Of a DNA stretch of 64,000 nucleotides, positions 34,937 to 62,611 are shown in pieces. Positions within the stretch are counted from its first letter, which is position 1, and each line of letters opens with the position of its first letter. Location: the IMG/VR virus record IMGVR_UViG_3300025087_000051, one strand, 5' to 3'. Below the pieces are notes generated by a model. The model did no database searches. It saw only the letters and a list, made by a program, of their open reading frames with translations, and was not told the DNA's origin. The stretch is from a virus. Its lineage: Duplodnaviria; Heunggongvirae; Uroviricota; Caudoviricetes. A program made the position numbers and the translations under genes.

Positions 34937-35008
34937 TGAACAAAAAAACACAAAAAACACAACAGATAGTACGGTATAAAAAATCATAAAATTATTTTAA
35001 ATTAGTTG

Positions 35009-35037
35009 TTGACAAGATTGAAAAAGGTGTGTATATT
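35009..35037 (+). promoter_or_regulatory. consensus-like sigma70 promoter driving RHH-tnpB
   Basis: TTGACA-17nt-TATATT. Confidence 0.55.
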
Positions 35038-35045
35038 CGCTGTAT

Positions 35046-35171
35046 ATGAAACGTATCAATTGCCATTTAACAAATCTTCAAATCAAACAATTAAAAAAAC
35101 TATCAAAAGAAGTTGGGCTGTCGGTTGCTGAAATTATTCGCCGAGCAATAGATGAATATATAACAAAATGA
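35046..35171 (+). CDS. ribbon-helix-helix micro-protein translationally coupled to tnpB
   Basis: 41-aa MKRINCHLTNLQIKQLKKLSKEVGLSVAEIIRRAIDEYITK; stop TGA overlaps tnpB ATG (ATGA). Confidence 0.45.
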   Translation: MKRINCHLTNLQIKQLKKLSKEVGLSVAEIIRRAIDEYITK

Positions 35172-36292
35172 AAAAGACATTTCTTTATCGTGCGAAAATA
35201 AACAGACAGACAGAATCTAATTGCTGTCGATGGATTGAAATTTGTCGTGATGTTTATAACTCCGCATTAGGGCAAAGAATTAATACGTACAAGGAAGCCG
35301 GAAAATCTATAACCAAAAACAATCAAGTAACACAATTACCTTTAATTAAAAAAGATTTTCCAAGTATTAAGATAGTTAGCTCTCAAACACTTCAAGATGT
35401 GATTGAACGTCTCGATAAAGCCTATAAAGCATTTTTTCGTAGAGTAAAGTTTGGAGAAAAAGCCGGATTTCCCCGTTTTAAGAATCGAAACAGCTATAAT
35501 TCCTTCACCCTTAAACAGCATGGATATAAACTTGATGGTAGGTATTTATATATTAAAAACATTGGCAGGTTCAAACTCTTTCTTTCCAGACCGATTGAAG
35601 GAAACGTCAAAACCGTTACCATCAGAAAGATGCCTACAGGTAAATGGTATGTATCTTTTTCTTGTGATGATGTTTCTGCCAAGCAAGTCTCAATAACCGA
35701 TAAAATCATAGGAATAGACGTAGGAATTAAAAATTTCTGTGTTGACAGCGAAGGAACATGCGTTAAAAACCCTAAATTTTTATTTGATTCTGAAAAAGAA
35801 CTTAGACGTAAACAGAGAAAACTTTCCAGAAGAAAAAAGTGTTCTAGCCACTGGAACAAAGCAAAAATATTAGTTGCTAAAGTGCATGAAAAAATAACAA
35901 ATCAAAGAAAAGACTTTTTACATAAGATTACCAATAAATATATTAATAATTTTCAAACTATTTATATTGAAGATTTAAAGATTAAAAATATGGTTAAAAA
36001 TAGATATTTGAGCAAATCTATTTCAGACAGTAGTTGGGGTACTTTCTTTCGGTTTCTTTCTTATAAAGCTGAAAATGCTGGTAGGAAAGTAATTAAGGTG
36101 AACCCTGCCAATACTTCACAAAAATGTTCTACTTGCGGAGAAAAAGTCCAAAAATCTTTATCTGTTCGTATACATTCGTGTTCTTTTTGTGGCTTGAAAA
36201 TAGATAGAGATTTGAATGCTGCAATAAATATAAGTCAGGATGGGCAGTCCTGTCAGGCATTAACTAATGATATGTTAGAATTGGTAGCCTGA
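35168..36292 (+). CDS. tnpB: TnpB (second, divergent copy; ~40% identity to 9510-10670)
   Basis: IGIDVGI, YIEDLKIKNM, CSTCG...CSFCG, RDLNAAINI. Confidence 0.9.
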   Translation: MKKTFLYRAKINRQTESNCCRWIEICRDVYNSALGQRINTYKEAGKSITKNNQVTQLPLIKKDFPSIKIVSSQTLQDVIERLDKAYKAFFRRVKFGEKAGFPRFKNRNSYNSFTLKQHGYKLDGRYLYIKNIGRFKLFLSRPIEGNVKTVTIRKMPTGKWYVSFSCDDVSAKQVSITDKIIGIDVGIKNFCVDSEGTCVKNPKFLFDSEKELRRKQRKLSRRKKCSSHWNKAKILVAKVHEKITNQRKDFLHKITNKYINNFQTIYIEDLKIKNMVKNRYLSKSISDSSWGTFFRFLSYKAENAGRKVIKVNPANTSQKCSTCGEKVQKSLSVRIHSCSFCGLKIDRDLNAAINISQDGQSCQALTNDMLELVA

Positions 36293-36400
36293 GTATCTTT
36301 TGATTTCAACTACAAGGAATGTCAAATATCGTATATACGTAAAAGCCTTGCAAAATAAGGGAAAATCCACAAAATAATAATATGAAAACCAATACCGAAA
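36293..36400 (+). ncRNA. possible omegaRNA 3' portion / right end of TnpB element
   Basis: CAAGG-28nt-CCTTG hairpin just after stop; boundaries unknown. Confidence 0.3.
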
Positions 36401-36603
36401 TTACGATATGTCAATCCCGAAAAACACTTGCAAAAGGAATCATAGAAATAGCATTAGATGAGTGCATTCAAAAAATTAACCAAGAAATCGAACAAGAAAA
36501 ATCAGAATCAGTAAAATATACAGTGTCTCCACTTTATATAAATGGACTTACAAAGGCGAAAAATATTATTAGTGAAATGAAACGAATTGTGAGTTCAAAA
36601 TGA
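36382..36603 (+). CDS. hypothetical protein, tandem paralog of 36625-36825
   Basis: shared E.L.ECI.EI..EI and AKNII.EMKR blocks. Confidence 0.4.
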   Translation: MKTNTEITICQSRKTLAKGIIEIALDECIQKINQEIEQEKSESVKYTVSPLYINGLTKAKNIISEMKRIVSSK

Positions 36604-36624: not shown

Positions 36625-36825
36625 ATGGAAATCATTATCGAACAAATCAGACAAACGATCATAAAAGAAATCACAAAAGAAACGTTGGAGGAATGTATCA
36701 AAGAAATTGACAGAGAAATTCTTTCGATAAAATCGCGTCCATACCCATTTTATCAACATCATGCGGATGGACTTGTAATGGCAAAAAATATCATCAACGA
36801 AATGAAACGAGAAAGATATTTATAA
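36625..36825 (+). CDS. hypothetical protein, tandem paralog of 36382-36603
   Basis: see previous. Confidence 0.4.
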   Translation: MEIIIEQIRQTIIKEITKETLEECIKEIDREILSIKSRPYPFYQHHADGLVMAKNIINEMKRERYL

Positions 36826-37772: not shown

Positions 37773-38663
37773 ATGATTTGGATGTCTATGGTATGTTTTG
37801 TTGCATTTGTTATTTTTTTTATCATTTTAAAGAATTTGAATAAAGATACGAATGATAGCGATAAATTAATTTTAAAAATATTCGCAGGAGCGTTTGGCGG
37901 TATTGGTGGACTTTTGTTCTTTTTTAGTATTTTTTCAATAATTCCGGTTGGCAACGTTGGAATACAAGTTATATTCGGAAAGGCTTCCCAGAACATACTC
38001 GAAAATGGATTAAGAACTAAAAATCCGTTTACTAGTGTTCAAAAAATGAGCGTGAAGACTCAGGAACTGAAAGAAAGCGCACAAGTTCCATCAAAAGAAG
38101 GACTGATCATGGATGTGGATATTAGCCTATTGTATCGATTAAACCCCCAAACATCTTTCGAGGTATATACAAAAGTTGGAAAAGATTATCAATCAGTTAT
38201 TGTAGAACCTCAACTCCGTTCGGCAATTCGTGAGATTACATCATCCTACGAGGCGAAAGTATTATATTCATCGGAAAGAGACAAAATAAGCAATGAAATA
38301 TATTCCTTATTCAAGAAAATGACTGAACACAGAGGAATTATCACAGAGCAATTACTGCTAAGAGACATTGGGCTGCCGAAAGTTGTTTCTGATGCAATTG
38401 AACAAAAACTTGAAGCGGAACAAAGATCAGAACAAATGAAGTTTACCTTAATGAAAGAGACACAAGAAGCAGAAAGAAAAAGAATCGAAGCAAGGGGTGT
38501 ATCTGATTTCCAACACATAGTTAGTGAAGGAATTAATGACAATCTTTTGAAGTGGAAAGGAATCGAAGCCACGGAAGCATTAGCAAAGTCTCCAAATGCT
38601 AAAATCGTTGTAATAGGTGGTAGAGACGGTATGCCGCTTATTCTTAATGCAGAAACTAAATAG
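37773..38663 (+). CDS. SPFH/band-7 (stomatin/prohibitin/HflK-like) membrane protein
   Basis: N-terminal TM then band-7 core and coiled-coil EQKLEAEQRSEQMKF..QEAERKRIEARG; GGAGGGG RBS. Confidence 0.75.
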   Translation: MIWMSMVCFVAFVIFFIILKNLNKDTNDSDKLILKIFAGAFGGIGGLLFFFSIFSIIPVGNVGIQVIFGKASQNILENGLRTKNPFTSVQKMSVKTQELKESAQVPSKEGLIMDVDISLLYRLNPQTSFEVYTKVGKDYQSVIVEPQLRSAIREITSSYEAKVLYSSERDKISNEIYSLFKKMTEHRGIITEQLLLRDIGLPKVVSDAIEQKLEAEQRSEQMKFTLMKETQEAERKRIEARGVSDFQHIVSEGINDNLLKWKGIEATEALAKSPNAKIVVIGGRDGMPLILNAETK

Positions 38664-47082: not shown

Positions 47083-47289
47083 ATGACAACAGACAATATA
47101 AATCATCCGCCACATTACAAATCAAACGGTATGGAAGCTATTGACGTGATAGAGGCGTTTGGTCTTGGATTTCATCTTGGTAATGCCATGAAATACATTC
47201 TTAGAGCTGGCAGAAAAACAGAAGACGATACGGAAGATACAAAAAAGGCTATTTGGTATTTAAATCGTTATTTAGGAGAAAAACAGTGA
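47083..47289 (+). CDS. DUF3310-like phage protein
   Basis: NHPPHYKSNGMEAIDVIEA pattern recalled from phage DUF3310 family (from memory). Confidence 0.45.
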   Translation: MTTDNINHPPHYKSNGMEAIDVIEAFGLGFHLGNAMKYILRAGRKTEDDTEDTKKAIWYLNRYLGEKQ

Positions 47290-48824
47290 AAATAATTAAA
47301 CCGTCAATTGAAATTTTAGACGTATTAGACCAAACCACTATTTTGAAAAGATTGGAATTAGTTGGAAGGACTTGCTATAAATCAGAAGATAAAATAACCG
47401 ATAATTCTTGTGTTGAGTTTATCAGAAAGATTATTAAGTCTGGACACCATTCCATAATTGAACATTACGATATTTCGGTTAGAGTAATATGTGATAGGGG
47501 CGTTACCCACGAAATAGTTAGACATAGAATAGCCAGCTATGCTCAGGAATCTACACGATATTGTATATCGGGAGACATGGGTTTATCTTTTAAAAATCCT
47601 CATCAAAAATTTACTGTGAGCCAACTTTATAACAATCGAATTAACTCAAAAAATAATTCGTGGAAAAGAATGTTTATTAAACAACTTAACGAAGACACCG
47701 GATATATCACTTTTGACAAAATAAAAAATATTGTTTATACAGGATTTAAAGAGGTAGTAAAAATTACTACTTCTCTTGGGTATTCTCTTATTGTTACGCC
47801 AGATCATAGAATAAAAACCAGTTATGGATATGCAAGGGCAGACAGTTTAGCGGGAAGGGAGATAGCTGTAAATGGAATTGGAATTTGTACAACAAAACAT
47901 GCCTACCAAGATAAAGATTGGCTTAAATATCACTATATTGTGTTAAACAAAACAGCAGTACAAATTGCCAATGATTTAAAAGCTAGTACCTCTGCCGTTA
48001 AGAAATGGATAAGATTGCATGGCTTTGCGAATACTAAACCAAAAAGCTATTGGAATAAGGGAAGAAAACCCTGGAATAAAGGACTTACCGAAAGCAATGA
48101 TATAAGAATCAAAAAACAAGGAGATGCCCTACGAAAATTCGGATATAGAAAAGGAGAAAAAAAAAGACAGAAAACAATATCTATAAGAACTTATCATAAA
48201 ACCGTAAAAGATAAATGTGTTTTGTGTGGAGGTTGTTTATCCCTTCATGTTCACCACAAAAACAGCAACAGGATGGATAATTGTACTGACAATTTGATAA
48301 CCTTATGCCCCTCTTGTCATGGGGGTGTCCATAATAAAAATCTATCATTTGTATATTTTGATAAAGTAGTATCCATAGAAAAATTGCCTAATACTATTCC
48401 TGTTTATGATATTGAGATGGGAGGGCAATATCATAATTTTGTAGCAAACGGTGTGGTTGTGCATAACTGTAATTATGCAAGCGGTAAATTTGGAAATGAA
48501 ATCACTGTTATTGAACCTTGTTTTTGGAATATAGATAACGATGAAAAGATGTTAGTATGGGAATTAGTCATAAAAGCCTCAGAAGCCGCATATCTCAAAC
48601 TTATAGAACTTGGAGCAACTCCACAAGAAGCGAGGAGTGTGCTTCCAAATTCTTTGAAAACAGAAATAATTGTTAAATTCAATCTTCGAGAATGGAGACA
48701 TTTCTTAACTTTGAGAACTTCTAGGGCTGCTCATCCACAAATGAGAGAAGTGACAAACATGATACTAACAGAGTTTAAATCAAAATTACCAATTATTTTT
48801 GAGGATATATCCAATGAAAATTAA
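47253..48824 (+). CDS. thyX: flavin-dependent thymidylate synthase ThyX interrupted by an HNH intein
   Basis: N-extein IVRHRIASYAQESTRY (RHRx7S...SxRY ThyX motif); C-extein ARSVLPNS...NLREWRHFLTLRTS; exteins total ~221 aa. Confidence 0.8.
   Translation: MVFKSLFRRKTVKIIKPSIEILDVLDQTTILKRLELVGRTCYKSEDKITDNSCVEFIRKIIKSGHHSIIEHYDISVRVICDRGVTHEIVRHRIASYAQESTRYCISGDMGLSFKNPHQKFTVSQLYNNRINSKNNSWKRMFIKQLNEDTGYITFDKIKNIVYTGFKEVVKITTSLGYSLIVTPDHRIKTSYGYARADSLAGREIAVNGIGICTTKHAYQDKDWLKYHYIVLNKTAVQIANDLKASTSAVKKWIRLHGFANTKPKSYWNKGRKPWNKGLTESNDIRIKKQGDALRKFGYRKGEKKRQKTISIRTYHKTVKDKCVLCGGCLSLHVHHKNSNRMDNCTDNLITLCPSCHGGVHNKNLSFVYFDKVVSIEKLPNTIPVYDIEMGGQYHNFVANGVVVHNCNYASGKFGNEITVIEPCFWNIDNDEKMLVWELVIKASEAAYLKLIELGATPQEARSVLPNSLKTEIIVKFNLREWRHFLTLRTSRAAHPQMREVTNMILTEFKSKLPIIFEDISNEN
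47562..48467 (+). other. intein (302 aa) with HNH homing-endonuclease domain inside thyX
   Basis: starts CISGDMG (block A), HVHHKNSNRMDNCTDNLITLCPSCHGGVHN HNH, ends VYDIEMGGQYHNFVANGVVVHN followed by +1 Cys. Confidence 0.8.
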
Positions 48825-59905: not shown

Positions 59906-62611
59906 ATGGAAATCTCGAACAAAATCCCATTTTCTAATCCTAAATTTAAAAAAGGATTAACACCGCTACAGCACAAAACCGTCACGGACGTGCTATCAAG
60001 CAGAAAAACAATAACGATGATTAATGCTCCCACCGGATTCGGGAAGACTCCGACAGCTATGACCCTTGCCCACCATATAAACTACCCGAACCAATCTCTA
60101 TATCTTTGTAGTTCTAAAATTTTACAAGATCAATTGGCTGGGGATTTTACAGAAGCGTATCAATTAAAAGGGCGGGGAAATTATCCGTGCACACTTCTAC
60201 CCACCTATAATGCAGACCGATGCTTCCAACAATGCGATGAATATAAGTGCGGTGAAATTTCATGCGCTTATGAAGATGCGAAAAAAGAAGCCTTATCATC
60301 AACTTTTACCATTCTCAACATGCACTATTACGAGACCGAAACGAATTTTGTCGGTAGATTTTCAAAGCGTAAAACCGTAATAATTGACGAGGCAGATGTA
60401 TTAGAAGATATTTTGATAGATTTTATCGCACTAGACGTCCATCCGAAAACATTGGAAAAATTCAAGCTGGATCAGCCCAAATATGTGACTAAGTTAGATT
60501 CATGGAAGGAATGGGCGGATAAAACATTAAAAATATTAGAAGAAAAAGTTAAAAAGCTAAGAGCCGCCGAAGACCACTTGGATAGAGAATCAAAATTAGA
60601 ACTAAGTAAATTGTTGAGAATGTGTCTGAAATTAAATATGCTAAAAAACGATATAACGGAAGAGTGGATATTCGACCATGCCGAAAAATTTCGCTTTCAA
60701 CCTCTCTGGCTAGACACAAAACTTACCCAACAATATTTACTCAAACATGCGGAAAGATTCGTTATGATGTCTGCGACCATGCTCCCGAAAGTTATAGCGT
60801 GTAAATTATTGGGATTAGATATTAACGATGTGGATTATCACGAGATAGATTCACCTATACCCGTAGCGAATCGTCCCATTGTTTATAAGCCAATTAAAAA
60901 GCTAAAATACGGTGAATCAGAAGAAGATGTTTATAATGAAATTAAAAGATTGATAGAAGGGTACAAAGGAATTAAAGGGATTATTCATGCTGTGAGCTAT
61001 ACCCGTGCAAAGGCAATAGCAGGACTGGACAAGCGTTGCATCACTCATAATACCTACGATAAAAACGAAAAAATAAAACAATTCATAGACTCAAAAGATG
61101 GGATATTGGTAAGCCCATCGTGTGATCGTGGACTTGACCTGCACGGCGATCTAGCAAGATTCTGTATAATTCCAAAAGTTCCGTTCCCGAACACAACGGA
61201 CAAGGTGGTCTCCAAGCGTTTGTACAGCTCTCCCTTTGGTAGGGTATGGTACAGGGCTGTAACGGCGCAAACCATTGTTCAGATGGCGGGGCGTACTACT
61301 CGATGTTTTAGCACAGACACAGAAATCTTAACGATACATGGATGGAAAAAATACAACGAAGTAAATATGCACGATAAAACTTATTGTATTGATCAGAAAT
61401 CTTTTAACAATAAAACTAAACGTCCAGTTATGGAGGGTTCTTCGATATTAGTAGAAGGAGAAATAGAGGATGTCTATACATCAGATAAAGAAGAAAAAGT
61501 TATTAATATTAAAAATCAAAACATTGATGCTTTAGTTACTCAAGACCACGACATGATTGTTCAAATGAGAAAACAGAAAACTTATAGGGGGAAGTATAAA
61601 AAACCTTATGGAGTTTATGATTGGAAATACTGTCATCGTACAAATAGTCATGGATTAGAAAAAATAAAAGCATCTAAATTACCAGACAGATTTAAAATAC
61701 CACTAGCAGGAAAAATTATACGCAAAAACAAATCTCGTGCTAAAAAAGAATGGTTCTGGCTGATAGGTTTCATAATAGGGGATGGACATATTCATAAAAA
61801 CAAAAACGTCGTAACAATACATCAATCGGAAACCAACATAGACTTAATAGAAAAAATCAGAAAAGTTCTTGGTATACTTAAAATAGAATATTCAGAATAC
61901 AGACGACAAGTAAAAGGAACAAAAATAAATTTAAACGATAAGGAGTATTCAAGAAAAGAAGATATGATAAATTTTCAAATAACGGGTAAGTCTTCTTCGA
62001 TGATTAGGGATATGTTTAATAATGGCAAAAGAAGAAGGTATTCAAAAACAGTAACATACGTACAAAGAACTCACTTTTCTTTTAGTAAAAAAATAGGGGG
62101 AAAGCATAAAATAGATGGGTGGAAAGAAGTGGAAAAAATCATACCAAGATGGTGTCTGGAGAAGGGGTCGAAATCCCAACTTATTAAATTAATTCATGGT
62201 TTGGTTGACAGCGACGGAAGCTGGAAAAAAACTAATGGTAAATATAATAAAAACGTTGGAGGTTTTTACAACAAAAATAAAATCATAATAGATGCTTTTC
62301 AGGAGTTGTGCGTATTGACAGGATATAGAAGTTTGATTCGTAACAGAAGGAATCAATACGAAGTTTCCTTTTGTTGTCCCTCCATGATTGACTGTACGAA
62401 AAATAATGATGTAAAAGACGGAGGGATGTCTAAGGTGTGGTGTGTTAAAACAAATCATGGAAATGTTATAATGAGGAGAAATGGTAAACCTTTTTTGTGT
62501 GGAAACAGTGCCAGCGACTTTTCCACTGTTCATATACTGGACGCTGCTTTTGATTCGGTCGTAGAATTTGTCCCGAAATGGTTTCGAGATGCAATCAAGG
62601 TTGAATTTTAG
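59906..62611 (+). CDS. DinG/Rad3(XPD)-family FeS helicase interrupted by a LAGLIDADG intein in motif VI
   Basis: motif I NAPTGFGKT, four-Cys FeS cluster, DEAD box, motif VI QMAGRTTR | intein | SASDFSTVHILDAAF. Confidence 0.8.
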   Translation: MEISNKIPFSNPKFKKGLTPLQHKTVTDVLSSRKTITMINAPTGFGKTPTAMTLAHHINYPNQSLYLCSSKILQDQLAGDFTEAYQLKGRGNYPCTLLPTYNADRCFQQCDEYKCGEISCAYEDAKKEALSSTFTILNMHYYETETNFVGRFSKRKTVIIDEADVLEDILIDFIALDVHPKTLEKFKLDQPKYVTKLDSWKEWADKTLKILEEKVKKLRAAEDHLDRESKLELSKLLRMCLKLNMLKNDITEEWIFDHAEKFRFQPLWLDTKLTQQYLLKHAERFVMMSATMLPKVIACKLLGLDINDVDYHEIDSPIPVANRPIVYKPIKKLKYGESEEDVYNEIKRLIEGYKGIKGIIHAVSYTRAKAIAGLDKRCITHNTYDKNEKIKQFIDSKDGILVSPSCDRGLDLHGDLARFCIIPKVPFPNTTDKVVSKRLYSSPFGRVWYRAVTAQTIVQMAGRTTRCFSTDTEILTIHGWKKYNEVNMHDKTYCIDQKSFNNKTKRPVMEGSSILVEGEIEDVYTSDKEEKVINIKNQNIDALVTQDHDMIVQMRKQKTYRGKYKKPYGVYDWKYCHRTNSHGLEKIKASKLPDRFKIPLAGKIIRKNKSRAKKEWFWLIGFIIGDGHIHKNKNVVTIHQSETNIDLIEKIRKVLGILKIEYSEYRRQVKGTKINLNDKEYSRKEDMINFQITGKSSSMIRDMFNNGKRRRYSKTVTYVQRTHFSFSKKIGGKHKIDGWKEVEKIIPRWCLEKGSKSQLIKLIHGLVDSDGSWKKTNGKYNKNVGGFYNKNKIIIDAFQELCVLTGYRSLIRNRRNQYEVSFCCPSMIDCTKNNDVKDGGMSKVWCVKTNHGNVIMRRNGKPFLCGNSASDFSTVHILDAAFDSVVEFVPKWFRDAIKVEF
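61304..62506 (+). other. intein (401 aa) with LAGLIDADG homing endonuclease
   Basis: begins CFSTDTEILT; LIGFIIGDGHI and LVDSDGSW motifs; ends NGKPFLCGN then +1 Ser. Confidence 0.75.

Follow-up and report, generated by a model that had tools for sequence, protein, structure and literature searches.

The stretch of DNA considered here, referred to as the window, comprises 64,000 nucleotides (nt) of a Caudoviricetes phage and was taken from the IMG/VR virus record IMGVR_UViG_3300025087_000051. The window is AT-rich (33.6% GC) and its genes lie nearly all on the plus strand. The locus of interest begins with a sigma-70-type promoter and continues with a short gene for a ribbon-helix-helix (RHH) protein, a tnpB gene related to that of the insertion sequence (IS) ISDra2, and an omegaRNA scaffold that terminates at the right end (RE) of an IS200/IS605-type element. 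The features of this locus are presented in Table 1 along with those of a second TnpB module in the same window.

Table 1. Features of the RHH-tnpB locus and of the second TnpB module, in window coordinates (aa, amino acids; ORF, open reading frame; LE, left end).
Feature	Position	Strand	Details
Sigma-70-type promoter	35009..35037	+	TTGACA at 35009-35014, 17-nt spacer, TATATT at 35032-35037
Candidate Arc operator	35030..35047	+	Direct repeat of TGTATAT at 35030-35036 and 35041-35047, 11 bp from start to start
arc-like RHH gene, 41 aa	35046..35171	+	Pfam, homologues, pN/pS, AlphaFold2 and Foldseek
tnpB, 374 aa, ISDra2-like	35168..36292	+	Pfam domains, structure-profile match, catalytic residues
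omegaRNA scaffold and RE	36203..36325	+	Overlaps the tnpB 3' end; GTCAA terminus at 36321-36325
Predicted guide segment	36326..36345	+	DNA directly 3' of the RE, ATATCGTATATACGTAAAAG; guide also given as ATATCGTATATACGTA
Left flank, expected site of the LE hairpin	34937..35008	+	AT-rich; small palindrome TAAAAT-T-ATTTTA at 34987-34999
Second tnpB, 386 aa	9510-10670	-	46% identical TnpB with D/E/D motifs intact; antisense to the surrounding phage genes
LE-like hairpin of the second module	~10880-10830	-	
Promoter of the second module	10825-10797	-	TTGACA-17-TATACT
Zinc-ribbon micro-ORF, 39 aa	10790-10671	-	CxxC..CxxC; predicted to be leaderless; MKIKIIKLACERCKHLWTPRKSEVVICPKCKSPYWNRKK

The product of the small gene (MKRINCHLTNLQIKQLKKLSKEVGLSVAEIIRRAIDEYITK) passes the Pfam cut-offs for both RHH_1 (expect value, E = 2.7e-6; 27.6 bits with a cut-off of 20.5) and RHH_3 (24.3 bits with a cut-off of 21.6). 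AlphaFold2, run with nine homologues, gave a model (predicted local distance difference test, pLDDT = 85.8) with an extended N-terminus followed by two helices (aa. 10-23 and 27-40), and the predicted β-strand reads K2-R3-I-N5-C-H7-L-T9. The model was searched against the PDB with Foldseek and the top matches were all RHH proteins, namely YiiF, CopG, CopA_SO, ORF56, PutA and P22 Arc. From a search of 5.8 billion proteins, eight homologues were identified with 61-80% identity, each with an RHH Pfam match of its own, and R3, N5, L8 and an RRAID motif are invariant among them. A pairwise codon comparison of six loci gave nonsynonymous differences (pN) of 0.14-0.26 and synonymous differences (pS) of 0.47-1.07, or a pN/pS of 0.17-0.55 with synonymous sites near saturation. 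Together, these comparisons indicate that the micro-ORF is a real gene under purifying selection. When the RHH protein was compared to phage records by tblastn no match was found, and the same search of plasmids returned only weak CopG-family matches. An ENA assembly of the same phage (L184, 3225-3457) leaves the RHH gene uncalled as a gap of 231 nt between an upstream 74-aa ORF and tnpB, which suggests that micro-genes of such size escape annotation.

The stop codon of the RHH gene overlaps the tnpB start codon in the sequence ATGA (35168-35171), and the region ahead of tnpB shows no Shine-Dalgarno sequence. The TnpB protein contains the Pfam domains OrfB_IS605, Cas12f1-like_TNB and HTH_OrfB_IS605, and matches the ISDra2 TnpB structures (PDB: 8bf8, 8exa and 8h1j) with an E of 1.3e-65. 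The RuvC triad D184/E268/D348 is intact, the DRD348LNAAINI motif is kept, and the zinc finger retains two CxxC pairs (C320xxC and C338xxC).

The boundary of the RE was set at the point where the flanks of related elements diverge. In an alignment of 35 sequences (A1), the terminal GTCAA is invariant throughout the family, and the RE of all relatives ends in the form ...TGAGAATCCCC-loop-GGGGAGTGTCAA. The consensus structure of the omegaRNA from 35 aligned sequences consists of 33 pairs, 24 of which present compensatory changes. The omegaRNA of the window keeps 29 of these pairs, on par with its closest relatives, and its terminal RE hairpin, which has drifted toward AT, is still compatible with pairing at the RNA level through six Watson-Crick and two G-U pairs. 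The omegaRNA of such elements is said to be processed from the tnpB mRNA. With a guide length of ~16-20 nt assumed, the segment from position 36326 would serve as the guide, and no second match to it with up to three mismatches was found in the 64-kb window. A nuclease-dead regulator of the TldR type was ruled out by the intact D/E/D triad and by the lack of a second guide match in the window. A scan of the whole window at the Rfam gathering thresholds produced 0 matches, by which an IStron or group I intron and a curated omegaRNA family were excluded.

An initial annotation, made from the letters of the DNA and a list of its ORFs, had described the near-consensus promoter, the 41-aa RHH-like ORF, its overlap with the tnpB start, a TnpB with intact D/E/D residues and zinc finger, and a window devoid of TnpA. 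These observations hold up on closer analysis, and the conservation of the micro-ORF among homologues bears out its reading as a gene. The suggestion that TnpB may be targeted independently of a guide is not supported since the omegaRNA scaffold is both covarying and intact.

The promoter matches the consensus at 11 of 12 positions and the end of its -10 element is separated from the RHH ATG by 8 nt. Since the distance from the -10 element to the first ATG is only 6-10 nt in these elements, the first ORF, and with it the mRNA, is probably leaderless. As a class, promoter-like sites are not enriched in the window (52 found, 53.7 expected). The composite TTGACA-N16-18-TANNNT-N5-10-ATG occurs twice in 64 kb where 0.42 would be expected, both times at a TnpB module, and the same layout from promoter to ATG is seen again at ~20 related loci. 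The position of the promoter is kept across the RHH cassettes described below and across the whole TnpB lineage.

The promoter, an operator-like repeat and the RHH gene are kept as a unit at nine independent loci: the window, L025, L185, L188, L189, L190, L198, L199 and L200. The layout of this cassette consists of TTGACA, a spacer of ~17 nt, (G)TGTATAAT, a TATACA-like sequence and the RHH ATG. The gene that follows the cassette encodes TnpB in the window, L025, L188 and L198, a GIY-YIG endonuclease in L189, a LAGLIDADG_3 protein in L200, and proteins with no assigned function in L185, L190 and L199. Look-ups of the RHH homologues recovered the pairing with tnpB in L025, L188 and L198. In seven of the nine cassettes (six of the eight contexts other than the window), the RHH gene and the gene behind it overlap by 4 nt at the stop and start codons. 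Since the cassette stands ahead of TnpB, GIY-YIG, LAGLIDADG_3 and other genes, the RHH protein fits the role of a promoter regulator and not that of a partner specific to TnpB.

In the window, the TGTATAT repeat overlaps the ATG as well as the -10 element and predicted transcription start. All nine cassettes have half-sites of the form TGTATA/TATACA around the -10 element and transcription start, and the half-sites are perfectly palindromic in L190 (GTGTATAT-A-ATATACAC) and L198 (GTCTGTATA-A-TATACAGAC). From this comparative evidence, the TGTATA half-sites may be considered a candidate RHH operator.

The portability of the cassette also bears on the idea that the RHH and TnpB proteins form a toxin-antitoxin (TA)-like pair, in which an RHH antitoxin would bind TnpB and block the nuclease. 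The order of an RHH gene followed by an overlapping tnpB resembles type II TA operons, and several of the Foldseek matches are DNA-binding domains of RHH antitoxins. The same hypothesis has been published for the RHH/MazE-TnpB clade of archaea, whose RuvC-III motif is rearranged (Asp to His; Altae-Tran et al. 2023, PMC10691335) and which resembles the window in having an RHH gene directly upstream of a non-mobile tnpB with a guide-capable 3' region. For the window, a TA pair is nevertheless improbable. With 41 aa, the protein is a bare RHH domain and lacks the C-terminal toxin-binding tail that is usual in RHH antitoxins, and nearly identical RHH proteins precede GIY-YIG, LAGLIDADG and otherwise unrelated genes. 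In contrast to the archaeal clade, the D/E/D residues of the window TnpB are canonical, with D348 of RuvC-III kept in place of the Asp to His rearrangement, and the host is a phage with bacterial, sigma-70-type promoters.

To place the locus within its lineage, 183 related TnpB loci were collected from viral, metagenome and genome collections. The left end of the family is composed of TTAC/TTAT, a G+C-rich hairpin of ~45 nt, TTGACA-17-TAtAaT, 6-10 nt and the first ATG. This layout is the same whether the first ORF is tnpA, an RHH gene, another micro-ORF or tnpB itself. On this comparison the promoter belongs to the regular left end of the lineage, and not the dedicated addition that the initial annotation took it to be. 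The description of the locus as unlike a canonical IS also proved overstated. In L023 and L024, whose TnpB proteins are 73-74% identical to that of the window, a 140-aa Y1 TnpA gene directly abuts tnpB, and in L025 (TnpB 75% identical) the left end is intact and an RHH homologue overlaps tnpB. A census of the slot upstream of tnpB was performed over 38 distinct loci whose TnpB identity is 50% or higher. In these, the slot holds a Y1 TnpA gene in 13 loci, a helical micro-ORF in 6, an RHH gene in 3, a zinc-ribbon micro-ORF in 1 and none of these in the remaining 15. The TnpB of L025, which has an RHH partner, is 80% identical to that of L023, which has TnpA, versus 75% to the window copy; similarly, the TnpB of L031 (helical micro-ORF) is 84% identical to that of L034 (TnpA). 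Since the identity of TnpB does not track the partner gene, the slot must have been exchanged repeatedly.

While the relatives retain a left-end hairpin, none was found in the window at 34937-35010, where the minimum free energy of the DNA is -1.3 kcal/mol versus -7.7 to -15 kcal/mol in the relatives. A nhmmer profile of the LE built from 18 relatives gave no match in the left flank either. In the IS200/IS605 mechanism, Y1 TnpA supplied in trans should need the LE hairpin for excision. With the hairpin missing, the window copy is probably not mobilisable by TnpA and is thus probably immobile. A tblastn search of the 64 kb with three Y1 TnpA seeds and the gamma-delta resolvase produced nothing credible as TnpA or a remnant of it; the one match with an E of 0.008 falls inside the tnpB reading frame itself. 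Judged from its sequence, the element would be at best a non-autonomous member of IS200/IS605. The left-flank stretch is shared by L015 without 23 nt (aaaaaacacaaaaaacacaacag).

The loss of the LE hairpin, the lack of tnpA and the AT drift of the RE hairpin would also suit an ordinary IS remnant in decay, with the small ORF and its promoter present by accident. This explanation is disfavoured and has very little probability given the purifying selection on the micro-ORF and its Pfam-significant homologues, the intact tnpB frame and catalytic residues, the 29 of 33 omegaRNA pairs that are kept, and the conservation of the cassette at other loci. A decayed tnpA is found in Clostridium phage c-st (L192, 1664-1789; AP008983.1, ~38213-38338), where a 41-aa ORF ahead of tnpB represents an internally deleted Y1 TnpA remnant (MITIKLDTNNHLVFLLHYHLVLVIKYRREVIKKYIENQGTK). 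The ORF ahead of TnpB in the c-st phage is therefore a decayed tnpA and not Arc, in contrast to the RHH gene of the window.

From the evidence above, the locus is best considered a non-autonomous IS200/IS605 derivative in which an RHH protein of the Arc/CopG type occupies the tnpA slot and would repress the promoter from which it and tnpB are expressed. The probability of this reading is estimated to be about 0.7. According to the model, the strong promoter of the IS family would fire a leaderless, bicistronic arc-tnpB transcript, and the ATGA overlap would couple the translation of tnpB to that of arc. This transcript would also supply the omegaRNA from its 3' end, with the scaffold extending to 36325 and the guide beginning at 36326. 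RHH dimers bound at the TGTATA half-sites over the -10 element and transcription start would shut the promoter, and this negative autoregulation would keep the levels of the nuclease and its guide RNA low. The TnpB-omegaRNA complex is predicted to be a competent RNA-guided nuclease with a guide matching its own right flank, a configuration that reportedly serves IS605 TnpB in homing or retention. Within a phage, such selfish homing or retention may take the form of cutting the insert-free alleles of co-infecting relatives.

Several observations weigh against parts of this model. Considered from the window alone, the TGTATAT repeat is not significant (1 found, 1.4 expected), and its half-sites are direct repeats in the window and inverted repeats in some homologues. 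At the left junction, the related phage L197 matches the window through the -35 box to ~35026, and its last 64 nt part from the window sequence inside the promoter spacer. It may be, therefore, that the -35 box is part of the phage backbone and that recombination at the promoter, and not transposition, brought in the module. Finally, the search for an insert-free allele in which 34.9 kb adjoins 36.3 kb gave none; exact look-ups of the RHH and the 74-aa ORF recovered only insert-bearing contigs.

The related phages L193-L196 switch at ~34946 to a different, nucleotidyltransferase-like gene, and from sequence comparison the left junction (34945-35026) is a mosaic hotspot. Scans of IMG/VR with both flanking ORFs identified no relatives. 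Distant homologues of the 74-aa ORF are located on contigs of less than 1.2 kb, and the contigs do not rejoin the right flank (L193-L197). An 11-nt match between the tail of L197 and the right flank was rejected since it is no better than chance (94 of 300 shuffles). The module DNA compared to phage records gave only short matches internal to tnpB (69-75% identity). No clean empty site is provided by the related phages.

The recovered contigs are also relevant to whether the module serves the phage and not itself. Exact look-ups of the RHH gene and the upstream 74-aa ORF place the window in a phage of ~78.6 kb from groundwater metagenomes. Among the recovered contigs, all that extend to the locus carry the RHH-tnpB insert at the same position with near-identical sequence, and the contigs are near-clonal. 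An immobilised TnpB-omegaRNA that the RHH protein restrains could be a domesticated tool kept for the benefit of the phage, either to cut the DNA of competitors or the host, or to provide RNA-guided regulation. Such a role is in keeping with a module that has neither tnpA nor an LE hairpin, is confined to one locus throughout the recovered contigs, and has a TnpB and omegaRNA that are intact and not decaying; moreover, its terminal RE hairpin keeps its RNA pairing via G-U and loses its G-C pairs at the DNA level. Domestication is nonetheless unlikely. The predicted guide corresponds to the right flank of the element itself and lacks any further target in the 64 kb, as in the default configuration of a selfish element, and the nuclease has not been inactivated, unlike the TldR-type regulators. 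Since the contigs are near-clonal, their uniformity says little on selection, and the close relatives of the element are ordinary IS copies.

The association of an RHH gene with TnpB, which the initial annotation regarded as unrecognised among IS605 components, is present in the literature. Zedaveinyte et al. 2023 (bioRxiv 10.1101/2023.11.20.567912) describe IStrons and IS605/IS607 elements that contain an Arc-like RHH ORF, and note that hundreds of Arc homologues adjoin TnpB, homing endonucleases and TA systems; the archaeal clade of Altae-Tran et al. 2023 mentioned above is a further instance. Moon, Zedaveinyte, Wiegand & Sternberg 2026 (bioRxiv 10.64898/2026.09.24.754181) used chromatin immunoprecipitation sequencing (ChIP-seq), a tnpB-promoter reporter and mutagenesis to demonstrate the binding of Arc to the IS605 promoter and the repression of tnpB expression, with DNA contacts made by Asn5, Asn7 and Thr9. 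Their set includes elements composed of arc and tnpB only, and Arcs of up to 50 aa that were missed by annotation. The autorepressor that the initial annotation had proposed would fit these experiments by analogy. The central idea of an RHH autorepressor in an IS605 element is thus already published, and nothing is overturned by the present analysis.

Compared to the Arc-IS605 elements, the window has the same small RHH gene beside tnpB in an IS200/IS605-type element with a strong sigma-70 promoter adjacent. The β-strand residues are N5/H7/T9 in the window and N5/N7/T9 in the published Arc, and in both cases close Arc relatives adjoin homing endonucleases. The systems differ with respect to gene order: many of the published arc genes occur with tnpA and are divergent from tnpB over a bidirectional promoter, whereas the arc gene of the window is co-directional with tnpB, overlaps it and takes the tnpA slot. 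The window copy is also borne by a phage, is probably leaderless, and has no LE hairpin. With ISDra2 and IS608, the element has in common a matching TnpB and an omegaRNA that covers the tnpB 3' end and terminates at the RE, and the relatives of the element have TTAC/TTAT outside the left-end hairpin. The window element departs from ISDra2/IS608 in having no tnpA or LE hairpin, and an RHH gene in the tnpA position. Among the classical RHH repressors, CopG of pMV158 and Arc/Mnt of P22 are similar in size (41-45 aa), read DNA with a β-strand, and are encoded behind the promoter they are thought to control; the candidate half-sites of the window are likewise one helical turn apart. In contrast to these repressors, the cargo in the window is an RNA-guided nuclease in place of a replication initiator or antirepressor, and the similarity to CopG is weak (E = 0.11).

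Within the set of cassettes, the loci L189 (922-1893) and L200 (87-934), with their GIY-YIG and LAGLIDADG_3 genes, encode RHH homologues of 68-78% identity. The L200 locus keeps an IS-left-end-like motif, GGGAGATGAATTGCC, upstream of its -35 box. This motif hints at a transfer of the cassette to a homing endonuclease gene out of an IS605 left end.

The second TnpB module, which the initial annotation omitted, provides a further occupant of the slot. The TAG stop of its zinc-ribbon micro-ORF abuts the ATG of the second tnpB, and a homologous zinc-ribbon ORF is found in L064 ahead of a TnpB that is 56% identical to the RHH-linked TnpB. The Pfam zinc-ribbon matches of the micro-ORF are sub-threshold only. 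A family of helical micro-ORFs (50-65 aa) that end at the tnpB start was also observed in L031, L032, L033, L042, L059 and L062. They share the left-end promoter and the tnpA slot and contain the motif KLDLEQLRxEI...HWKQxKRGKPNP with no Pfam match; the TnpB proteins behind them are relatives with 52-56% identity. No relevant literature turned up in searches for TnpB partners encoded by zinc-ribbon or other micro-ORFs. The zinc-ribbon micro-ORF and the helical family are more novel than the RHH pairing.

A broader interpretation can be offered tentatively, and it is more doubtful than not. The slot behind the left-end promoter may be an exchange slot that accepts either tnpA or one of at least three unrelated micro-proteins (the RHH protein, the CxxC..CxxC zinc ribbon and the helical family), each leaderless and overlapping tnpB. 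The RHH gene may then represent a portable promoter-operator-repressor cassette that is used across TnpB, GIY-YIG and LAGLIDADG genes.

The remainder of the window contains phage hallmarks that include other selfish insertions. The ThyX gene (47253-48824) is split by an intein (Intein_splicing, E = 1e-15), and a DEAD/ResIII helicase (59906-62611) bears a LAGLIDADG_3 domain that is probably another intein or an endonuclease insertion. Directly downstream of the right end there are two tandem small ORFs (36382-36603, 73 aa; 36625-36825, 66 aa). The pair resembles paralogues with a common ...ECI.KI..EI... pattern and a C-terminal AKNII.EMKR, and neither has a family match.

As a phage-borne example of an Arc-TnpB element, the locus adds a clear anatomy in which a probably leaderless promoter, a candidate operator, the RHH gene, a putatively coupled tnpB and the omegaRNA can be followed in order. 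It also adds a promoter-RHH cassette that is common to homing endonuclease genes, and a slot swapped with tnpA among TnpB proteins of 75-84% identity. For genome editing, the compact 374-aa TnpB with a defined omegaRNA 3' end comes with a putative natural off-switch. If the exchange-slot interpretation is true, both TnpB copies of the phage, the RHH-linked one and the zinc-ribbon-linked one, would represent RNA-guided nucleases that are immobilised and retained for use in homing or in competition among phages. The zinc-ribbon and helical micro-proteins would then constitute new regulators or TnpB cofactors, and micro-proteins of this kind would serve as general governors of selfish nucleases.

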